Positions 27,960 to 29,160 of a stretch of 64,000 nt of DNA are shown one piece after another. Each line of letters begins with the position of its first letter. Position 1 is the stretch's first letter. The position numbers were made by a program, and so were the translations under genes. The stretch comes from a virus, in IMG/VR virus record IMGVR_UViG_3300045996_001458, positions 18,068 through 82,067 of that record, one strand, 5' to 3'. The notes under the pieces are model-generated. The model saw nothing but the letters and a program-made list of their open reading frames with translations. It was not told where the DNA came from and ran no database searches.

Positions 27960-28853
27960 TCATGCGGCACTCGCCCTGTCCGGCCCGGGCGCAGGGACGT
28001 GCACATCGGTGACGCCGTGCAGTCGTCGGGCCTCGATCCACAAGTCCTTCAGCACCGTCTTGGCGATGGCACGCAGAGCGCGACCGTGCTGGTGCGCGGG
28101 CGGCAACGGGGAGCCGACTTCGGCCGGCTTGCCACTGGGTCCGCATTGTTTGCAGGGCACGTTGTGCACCGCGTCGGCGTACTTCGCCCGCGTCTCGTCG
28201 TAAACCGTGCGGTACTTCGAACCGGACGGGGCCTTCACGCACGAGGTGGCGATGAGCCACGCCCGCTTGCGGGCCTCTTGGGACCAGTTCGACTTCTGTC
28301 CGCGCGTCCGCTTGGGCGCGGTTGAATGGCTCCCGCCAGCGTTCACCATCTGGGTTTCGAGCACATAATGGCTGGCGGGAAGTTGGGTCCCAGTGGTGCG
28401 GGCGCCTTGGGTTTCGTCGCACGAATGACCACTGGGAAGTGTGTGGTATCCGCAGTACGCCCAGAGTTCGGACACGGTGCGGGGCCGCTGGTGCAGGGTG
28501 TTCCAGTACGGGTCGCCGATCTCGCCGAGCAGGCGGGCCAACTGCTTCTCGCCGACGCCGGTGGCCTGTTTGATCCACGGACCCCACTGCGAGCGGCGCA
28601 TGTGCGACTGGAGCTGCTTGATCGCCTGGTCCTCCACGGCGGCCAGCGCTTCCAGCGACAGCGCGATGCGCTTCACGTCACGGTGGTCCTCGGGGAGTCC
28701 GAGGCTGCGGCGGATGCCGTCGTCGTCCACCTCGGTTGAGGTGAGCTGACGGAACCGGTTCCCGCTGGCGACGCGCAGGGACTCAAGGTCGTCCACCTGG
28801 GACGCGAGGATCTTCAGGAGCGGGTCGAAGAGCAGACCGTTGGGGTTGTTCAC
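27960..28853 (-). CDS. Nop-domain RNA-binding protein related to the IS110 C-terminal domain, no nuclease domain (TasA-like)
   Basis: Coiled-coil N-terminus; GVGEKQLARLLGEIGD, TVSELWAYCGY, KYRTVYDETRAKY, HGRALRAIAKTVLKDLW; no N-terminal DEDD RuvC; AAGGAG RBS. Confidence 0.85.
   Translation of the reverse strand: MNNPNGLLFDPLLKILASQVDDLESLRVASGNRFRQLTSTEVDDDGIRRSLGLPEDHRDVKRIALSLEALAAVEDQAIKQLQSHMRRSQWGPWIKQATGVGEKQLARLLGEIGDPYWNTLHQRPRTVSELWAYCGYHTLPSGHSCDETQGARTTGTQLPASHYVLETQMVNAGGSHSTAPKRTRGQKSNWSQEARKRAWLIATSCVKAPSGSKYRTVYDETRAKYADAVHNVPCKQCGPSGKPAEVGSPLPPAHQHGRALRAIAKTVLKDLWIEARRLHGVTDVHVPAPGPDRASAA
28331..28440 (-). ncRNA. Two TIGR-like stem-loop guide units embedded in frame in the TasA-like CDS
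   Basis: CCCAGTGG-TCA-TTCGTGCGA-CGAAACCCA-AGGCGCCCG-CA-CCACTGGG and TCCCGCCAG-CCA-TTATGTGCT-CGAAACCCA-GATGGTGAA-CG-CTGGCGGGA; same linker as the upstream array. Confidence 0.85.
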
Positions 28854-28870
28854 GGTGACTCCTTTGGTTA

Positions 28871-29160
28871 CCGACCAGGGCGCATGTCATCTGGGTTTCG
28901 CATCGTCATTGGCCCGGTCGGGAAGTTGGGTGCCGAAGGCGGTCCCGCCATGGGTTCCGCAAGCACGTTGGCCTTCGGCAAGTTGGGTGCCCGGACGGAA
29001 AGACCTTGGGTGTCGGACGGCCTTTGGTCCGGGCAATCTGAGTGCCAGCGGGGCGCAGGCTGTATGGGCCTCGGCAGGAGCGTGGCCCGGCTGGCGAGTT
29101 GGGATGCCAGCCTGACGGGAACCCTTTGGGCTTTGCGTACATCCTGGTCAGGCTGGCAAG
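28871..29160 (-). ncRNA. TIGR-like stem-loop dual-spacer array, 5 units
   Basis: Each unit = 8-11 bp stem, CCA, 9-nt spacer, 9-nt loop (consensus CGAAACCCA), 9-nt spacer, CG, stem; ACCCAACTT-like linkers; period 55-62 nt. Confidence 0.9.

Follow-up and report, generated by a model that had tools for sequence, protein, structure and literature searches.

We investigated a 64,000-nt stretch of viral DNA (the window, bases 18068-82067 of the 82,067-bp IMG/VR virus record IMGVR_UViG_3300045996_001458; coordinates below are window positions), concentrating on a minus-strand locus in which a tandem series of hairpins precedes and enters a gene, tasA, for a 297-aa protein. Very probably, the locus encodes a stem-loop TIGR-TasA system that a temperate-type soil actinophage carries in its early operon and that would mediate guide-directed DNA binding, most likely blocking transcription or replication. 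A TIGR-Tas-like identity had been proposed in an earlier sequence-only reading of this DNA, and it held up: TasA scored 217.4 bits (E 2e-64, profile positions 1-215 of 215) against the NCBIfam equivalog NF052498 (TIGR_Tas_endo, 'TIGR-Tas system RNA-guided endonuclease'), for which the cut-off is 100 bits, TasH and TasR were the best matches both in the PDB and by Foldseek, and the hairpins have the layout of stem-loop TIGR arrays. The system is not new biology: stem-loop arrays, in-frame intragenic guides, the CUU motif and repression by TasA were all published in 2025-2026 (Faure et al. 2025; Xu et al. 2026). The basic finding leaves current understanding unchanged, and its value lies in tractable actinophages, a partner gene and the question of targets.

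The hairpins share one layout, namely a stem, CCA, 9 nt, a 9-nt CGAAACCCA-type loop ending in CCCA, a further 9 nt, CG and the closing arm of the stem. Their seven-unit consensus is (C/T)CA-N9-C(G/A)NNNCCCA-N9-C(G/A), with an interior of 9+9+9 nt. The array, the effector gene and the individual units are as follows:

28870-29158, minus strand: five-unit stem-loop TIGR array, the tigRNA units being spaced 56-62 nt apart
27960-28853, minus strand: tasA, 297 aa, GTG start, with an AAAGGAG ribosome-binding site 6 nt before the GTG
29105-29158, minus strand: unit 1, spacer A GGATGTACG, loop CAAAGCCCA, spacer B AAGGGTTCC; perfect 12-bp stem
29043-29096, minus strand: unit 2, spacer A CGCTCCTGC, loop CGAGGCCCA, spacer B TACAGCCTG; 4+6-bp stem with one C-C mismatch
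28985-29038, minus strand: unit 3, spacer A AAGGCCGTC, loop CGACACCCA, spacer B AGGTCTTTC; 9-bp stem
28929-28982, minus strand: unit 4, spacer A ACGTGCTTG, loop CGGAACCCA, spacer B TGGCGGGAC; 10-bp stem
28870-28923, minus strand: unit 5, spacer A ATGACGATG, loop CGAAACCCA, spacer B GATGACATG; 4+6-bp stem with a one-base bulge
28386-28439, minus strand: unit 6, intragenic, spacer A TTCGTGCGA, loop CGAAACCCA, spacer B AGGCGCCCG; 10-bp stem at 28388-28437
28329-28382, minus strand: unit 7, intragenic, spacer A TTATGTGCT, loop CGAAACCCA, spacer B GATGGTGAA; 10-11-bp stem at 28331-28380

The sequence-only reading had counted five hairpins, all of which were reproduced on the minus strand between 29158 and 28870, both by direct reading and with a script combining a regular expression with a stem requirement, and its spacer pairs and loops for these five agreed exactly with ours; the count itself fell short, the total being seven. 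The five upstream units fill the 290 bp separating the stop codon of a 164-aa open reading frame (ORF) at 29164 from the GTG of tasA at 28853. Units 6 and 7 lie inside the tasA ORF at a distance of 57 nt, that is 19 codons, so that the reading frame stays open, and unit 6 falls within a disordered insert of TasA (residues 141-180 in the AF2 model). The closing pair of unit 6 is T-A, compared with C-G in the other units, which represents a compensatory change. CTT stands ahead of the stem in five of the seven units, the other two having CTC and ATT.

Two further observations concern the upstream array. The spacers of unit 5, ATGACGATG and GATGACATG (28881-28912, minus strand), are alike with a one-base offset, so that the predicted target, ATGACGATGCATGTCATC, is nearly palindromic around ATGCAT, and such a site could be operator-like. 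A 98-aa ORF with an ATG start runs across the whole array (28868-29164, minus strand); we judged it spurious, given that the unit spacings of 56-62 nt are not multiples of 3 and that the ORF stops before tasA, in a different frame.

Folding, covariation and repeat statistics support the units. The upstream array has a folding energy of -134.2 kcal/mol, with a z of -4.5 relative to shuffles; for the two intragenic units together, z is -4.4. With the seven units aligned in register, both sides vary in each of the 12 stem pairs, and 84.5% of the stem cells are paired; shuffles give 55% (0 of 500 were as high as the real units), and sliding the partner gives 24-45%. A repeat search recovered units 1, 3 and 4 as perfect inverted repeats of 9-12 bp with arms exactly 30 nt apart. 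Perfect hairpins of at least 9 bp with a 30-nt interior occur eight times in the 82-kb genome, five of them within the 830-bp locus, and a motif-plus-stem detector run over the whole genome found no units outside it. A search of the region against Rfam matched no family. A CRISPR array was considered and rejected: this would need identical direct repeats of ~23-37 nt, and the locus holds only a 17-nt linker/stem-base stretch, present twice, and copies of the 9-nt loop.

Across related loci, the boxes are retained and the spacers vary. The detector found 435 units in ~75 related loci, mostly just upstream of tasA, often within it and sometimes downstream. Among the 366 distinct units from these loci, spacer columns carry 0.00-0.16 bits of information, compared with 1.4-1.5 bits at the free box positions C1 and D2, which are C in 87% and G in 89% of units, respectively. 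Thus, the 9-nt segments, which the sequence-only reading took for spacers and would have abandoned as such had they been invariant across homologous loci, are hypervariable, and none of the spacer pairs of this phage recurs in any other related locus. Of 412 units in the relatives, 138 have CTT at the stem base (33%, compared with a background of 5%). Spacings divisible by 3 account for 23 of 24 among intragenic units, compared with 92 of 193 upstream, and the insert that follows LWAYCGYH in the homologues holds 0, 1, 2 or 3 units. The nearest TasA relatives (proteins P0002-P0010) are 64-77% identical, and the module of partner gene, array and tasA is retained in relatives down to 31% identity.

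TasA consists of a helical-hairpin coiled coil (~residues 11-87) followed by a Nop C-terminal domain, as seen in an AF2 model with a pLDDT of 83.4 and a pTM of 0.77, in which residues 141-180 are disordered. The sequence-only reading had suggested structure prediction as a test of a Nop fold, and the AF2 model and Foldseek together place the protein in the Nop/Tas fold. Foldseek against the PDB returned TasH or TasR chains at all of ranks 1-10 (probability 1.0, TM 0.53-0.74), with the IS621 and ISCro4 recombinases ranking after them and Nop5 and Prp31 at noise level only. By sequence, SpTasH (8e-9) and TaTasR (5e-7) were the only significant solved relatives in the PDB; both alignments flank a 41-residue insert of TasA that corresponds exactly to the two embedded units, and the SpTasH alignment is confined to the Nop part of that protein. 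The protein motifs quoted in the sequence-only reading are present, and its claim that RuvC and HNH domains are missing proved correct: ~10 residues precede the first coiled-coil helix, leaving no room for such a domain, and Pfam yielded no family for TasA and no nuclease domain at E values up to 1. Lacking a nuclease domain, this Tas protein is therefore assigned to the TasA subtype. The PHROG match, at 1.7e-95, is to phrog_4285, a family labelled 'transposase'.

Functional residues of SpTasH can be traced in the phage protein. The aromatic-basic pair W203/K211 with which SpTasH unwinds DNA aligns with W199/K207 of TasA, K207 being nearly invariant across the family, and the two proteins have in common the terminal box-binding helix motif HxHGxALRAxxKxxLxDxW. 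The C-terminal tail of TasA comprises 19 residues after the last helix and is disordered and unconserved, with no conserved Tyr or His (alignment A1). Separately, among 29 homologues His230, Cys234 and Cys237 are invariant and His254 is nearly so, all four being located in a beta-hairpin insert ahead of the last helix; since SpTasH has no Cys in the corresponding region, these four residues may form a zinc knuckle specific to the actinophage TasA clade. A box C/D small ribonucleoprotein of the type comprising Nop5, fibrillarin and L7Ae was rejected as an explanation, the boxes being CCA and CG, not RUGAUGA/CUGA with K-turns, and the Nop5 and Nop56/58 structures matching at E >2 only; no search of the phage aimed at fibrillarin or L7Ae was made.

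Published work provides close counterparts. Faure et al. (2025, PMC12045711) described stem-loop TIGR arrays associated with TasA, in which two 8-12-nt spacers lie between box C and box D, palindromic stems are variable and the transcript is processed into single-hairpin RNAs. Xu et al. (2026, bioRxiv 10.64898/2026.09.09.750476) catalogued 2,559 stem-loop arrays and reported units within tas genes that leave the frame unbroken and lie in disordered loops, such as the wedge loop of BlTasA, conservation of CUU at the stem base, and guide-dependent, reversible repression of transcription by TasA, which alone is sufficient in E. coli. The structure of PlTasA bound to a stem-loop guide and its target, determined by Guan et al. 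(2026, bioRxiv 10.64898/2026.08.11.744272), has a 9-bp heteroduplex on each of the two DNA strands. Like PlTasA (from a Peromyscus leucopus gut contig), BlTasA (Bifidobacterium longum) and MbTasA, the phage TasA is a nuclease-less protein combining a coiled coil with a Nop domain, encoded with tandem hairpins whose boxes C and D enclose a pair of 9-nt spacers, with a loop of 9 nt, sequence-variable stems and CUU at the stem base; as in the case of BlTasA, units are located both upstream of tasA and, in frame, inside it, in a disordered loop. The phage system differs from these three in belonging to an actinophage clade, in having CG rather than UG as box D, and in the conserved upstream 164-aa gene, of which the portions consulted of those papers make no mention.

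The dual-repeat systems TaTasR and SpTasH (PDB 9MTY, 9W03, 9W04, 21KL) provide the best solved matches in both sequence and fold. The guide core of the phage is nearly identical to that of TaTasR tigRNA1 (CCA-N9-UGAAACCCA-N9-UG), the two together reading CCA-N9-(U/C)GAAACCCA-N9-(U/C)G, and the unwinding pair and terminal helix motif are shared with SpTasH. However, TaTasR and SpTasH possess RuvC or HNH domains, fixed edge repeats and 36-nt tigRNAs, with TasH also carrying a C-terminal Tyr/His processing loop, whereas the phage system has no nuclease, variable hairpin stems and a tail without conserved Tyr/His. The IS110/IS621 bridge-RNA recombinases share a Nop-type RNA-binding domain and bipartite guides in RNA loops, and are a weaker fold match; unlike these, the phage locus encodes no DEDD catalytic domain, shows no mobile-element structure and specifies its RNA as an array of many simple units. 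As in the TasParB-TasA operons (Faure et al. 2025, fig. S14), tasA is operonised with a conserved second gene, but the partner in those operons is ParB-like and accompanied by dual-repeat arrays, whereas the phage partner has no ParB Pfam match and accompanies stem-loop arrays.

The array and tasA form part of a tightly packed minus-strand operon, which runs from the Cox-like gene through Ant, the 164-aa gene, the array and tasA to an 81-aa gene:

30496-30723, minus strand: Cox-like excisionase/repressor gene, upstream operon context
29655-30485, minus strand: anti-repressor Ant gene, upstream operon context
29164-29658, minus strand: 164-aa partner gene (phrog_4604), with its stop codon 5 nt before the first guide stem
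27718-27963, minus strand: 81-aa gene (phrog_6554, function not assigned by PHROG), with an ATG overlapping the tasA stop codon (ATGA)

The ATGA overlap places the 81-aa gene in the tasA operon. A consensus scan of the minus, transcribed strand from Ant through the end of tasA reported no promoter-like sites, all of the reported sites being on the opposite strand, and no terminator-like sites; co-transcription of this stretch is therefore the simplest reading. Gordonia phage BENtherdunthat matches this arrangement, with Cro followed by Ant, the partner gene, the array and tasA.

The 164-aa protein is likely a second component of the TIGR-TasA system. It matches phrog_4604 at 6e-19, a family without an assigned function in PHROG, and when related loci were searched with a profile of 23 members (alignment A2), 77 of 78 proved to carry a homologue on the same strand, immediately preceding the array or tasA, the single exception having no upstream sequence; tblastn found the homologue in 53 loci. 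Among phage records, the partner family is present in 85 and TasA in 90, with almost equal host tallies, and all records comparable by name are shared. The AF2 model of the partner (pLDDT 87.9) is mostly helical and two-lobed, with short beta strands in the second lobe. It belongs to no Pfam family, and by Pfam is not ParB-like; the PDB gave no credible sequence match, interleukin-24 at E 0.035 being taken as chance, and neither Foldseek nor VIA-align (best Z 5.2, on a helical hairpin) revealed a similar solved fold, nor did the ESM Atlas give a usable match. This upstream gene goes unmentioned in the portions consulted of the published TIGR-Tas descriptions. We put forward, tentatively, that the phrog_4604 protein could be an obligate, previously undescribed second protein of actinophage stem-loop TIGR-TasA systems, acting either as a tigRNA maturation or loading factor or as an effector that gives TasA its output; the former role is a candidate because stem-loop Tas proteins lack the Tyr/His processing loop.

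The analysis itself shows to which family TasA belongs and how it folds, how the units are built, that their stems covary and their spacers are hypervariable, and how the operon is laid out. For expression, processing, DNA binding and repression, we infer a scheme from published work on other TasA proteins. The operon (Cox-like gene, Ant, 164-aa partner, five units, tasA with its two units, and small genes) would yield one minus-strand RNA, from which each hairpin would be released as a ~50-55-nt tigRNA, probably by cutting near the CUU/CUC at the stem base. Each of the two 9-nt spacers would next base-pair with a different strand of a single uninterrupted 18-bp DNA site, which on one strand reads spacer A and then the reverse complement of spacer B. 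The gapless geometry is derived from TaTasR tigRNA1 (AGCCA-UGCAAGCCC-UGAAACCCA-UUGCCUUAG-UGCG) and its target oligo (...TGCAAGCCCctaaggcaa...; Table S3 of Faure et al.). Because TasA has no nuclease, it would be expected to bind and bend the DNA rather than cut it, most likely blocking transcription or replication at the bound locus. The programmable DNA-binding and silencing role envisaged in the sequence-only reading is supported by analogy, in that Xu et al. (2026) demonstrated it for other TasA proteins.

Using the TaTasR geometry, we predicted seven 18-bp target sites (that of unit 1 being GGATGTACGGGAACCCTT) and searched for them in several collections. Within the 82-kb genome, none of the seven guides had a self-target at up to 2 mismatches, and the counts at 3-4 mismatches equalled those of control geometries; a search for a kin-targeting signature, in which the phage's own copies differ at one codon phase alone, gave 0 sites, and 9 with one extra mismatch, compared with 3-17 in controls. 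An exact 18-mer scan of IMG/VR returned 0 matches for the targets of units 1, 2, 3, 4 and 5. The unit 7 target was found exactly in 4 IMG/VR contigs, which represent one phage of 46% GC from four samples; we judged this match to be chance, in keeping with the one or two chance matches expected per 18-mer. The unit 1 target had two unrelated matches, at chance level, in a scan of JGI metagenomes, and none at up to 1 mismatch in 226 sampled Actinomycetes genomes. For the related Mycobacterium phages, the two commonest targets had no match among 50,697 phage records, and one of them had none at up to 1 mismatch in 61 genomes of the genus Mycobacterium.

Several points weigh against the favoured explanation. 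No natural target was found for any guide searched; the natural targets of TIGR-Tas systems are likewise reported as not known in the field (Xu et al. 2026). The case for repression is carried over from TasA proteins outside this clade, and, given the near-universal partner, the published single-protein model may be incomplete for the actinophage clade. Soil metagenome sequencing runs contain small shares of the locus, and no RNA run is listed among the runs that hold it, which bears on expression and processing. A search for the host via prophage terminases across 401 Actinomycetes genomes returned distant ones alone (<=41%).

The foremost alternative, which we regard as rather unlikely, retains the same TIGR-TasA ribonucleoprotein and assigns it a function other than simple repression, either as a platform that recruits the 164-aa partner as effector or loading factor, or as a DNA-bending device for integration, excision or partition. 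The position of the partner directly upstream in 77 of 78 loci and its presence in 85 phage records compared with 90 for TasA would fit such a role, as would the proximity of the Cox-like, Ant and integrase module; moreover, Faure et al. (2025) suggested that DNA bending might assist integrases, and reported ParB partners at other TasA loci. However, no catalytic or DNA-binding fold can be recognised in the partner, and other TasA proteins repress alone in E. coli (Xu et al. 2026).

It is far less probable that the locus is a decayed relic in which hairpins and protein persist and guide function has been lost. The lack of a found target and the imperfect stems of units 2 and 5 could be taken that way, but both boxes are kept in seven of seven units, the closing pair of unit 6 is compensatory, the frame is intact across two embedded units, key residues are conserved, and the three-part module persists to 31% identity. 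Less credible still is an IS110-family transposase with a bridge RNA. This would account for the 'transposase' label of phrog_4285, for the RefSeq naming of BENtherdunthat gp59 and BPBiebs31 gp74 as transposases, and for the weaker fold matches to IS621 and ISCro4. Against it, both sequence and model show that the protein begins at the coiled coil, with no N-terminal DEDD/RuvC-like domain, and there is no IS110 Pfam match; Foldseek gives TasH/TasR at E 5e-7 compared with 7e-3 for IS621; the RNA is a tandem array of seven single units, not one two-loop bridge RNA; and the gene occupies a fixed syntenic place in phage early operons. Finally, G+C-rich hairpins in an intergenic gap might bring to mind common terminators, attenuators or REP-like repeats that have nothing to do with the protein. 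This reading can practically be dismissed, since the scan reported no minus-strand terminator-like site in the array or tasA, the boxes CCA, CG...CCCA and CG are fixed within an interior of exactly 30 nt, two units lie in frame within coding sequence, and the same design accompanies the same protein in ~75 loci.

The phage that carries this TIGR-TasA system has a GC content of 68%, and its 82-kb record is rated complete by CheckV. Among its genes are a terminase, tape measure, integrase, XRE-type regulator and methyltransferase. Megablast found no match in phages; the phage has no close isolated relative, and the nearest large terminase, at 55% identity, is that of Streptomyces phage Chymera. 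The phage also carries a tRNA-Leu(UAA) gene (18430-18505, minus strand).

TasA homologues were found in 90 phage records (83 from Mycobacterium, 5 from Gordonia, 1 from Rhodococcus and 1 from Arthrobacter), in 64 IMG/VR loci and in 13 bacterial genome loci, the latter including Streptomyces, Mycobacterium, Tsukamurella, Nocardia and Microbacterium; the bacterial loci were obtained by an alignment-based search, a single-protein query of genome contigs having given none. At E <1e-10, 958 database proteins match TasA, one of them already named TIGR-Tas by NCBI. Two contigs from metagenome-assembled genomes, L014 and L015, binned to Vicinamibacterales (Acidobacteriota) and Anaerolineales (Chloroflexota), likewise have the partner gene followed by the array and then tasA, so that, if the binning is right, the module may not be limited to phages of Actinomycetota.

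In this phage, a stem-loop TIGR-TasA system can be seen complete and in the setting of an entire 82-kb genome; of its seven well-formed guides, two lie within the effector gene. The findings also tie TIGR-TasA to the 90 isolated actinophage records, in which the gene is labelled 'transposase' or hypothetical and for whose hosts genetics is available. Those phages would make practical models for studying natural targets, spacer renewal and the processing of stem-loop tigRNAs, and the near-universal partner gene is a concrete candidate for a second component.

Homologous loci in isolated phages are those of BPBiebs31 gp74 (and 82 other Mycobacterium phage records) and BENtherdunthat gp59, whose TasA proteins are 49% identical to that of the present phage. 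They share with it the order of partner gene, array and tasA and a location in the early arm, close to the genes for the repressor, Cro and Ant, and differ in having entirely different spacers; intragenic units number none in the Mycobacterium phages and two in BENtherdunthat. Among the BPBiebs31-related Mycobacterium phages (L002 and L034-L046), 12 loci contain 18 distinct spacer pairs, of which three have spacer A TATCTCCGG in common and differ in spacer B, and one equals another pair with one base changed per spacer, which suggests that guides in these phages are renewed fast, by half-units. The records label these tasA genes 'transposase' or hypothetical, and gp59 and gp74 both appear to be misannotated TIGR-TasA loci. 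RefSeq gives gp59 ('transposase'; NC_047891.1, L001 2081-3355) a length of 425 aa because the annotated coding sequence reads through ~420 nt of TIGR array before reaching the real TasA start.

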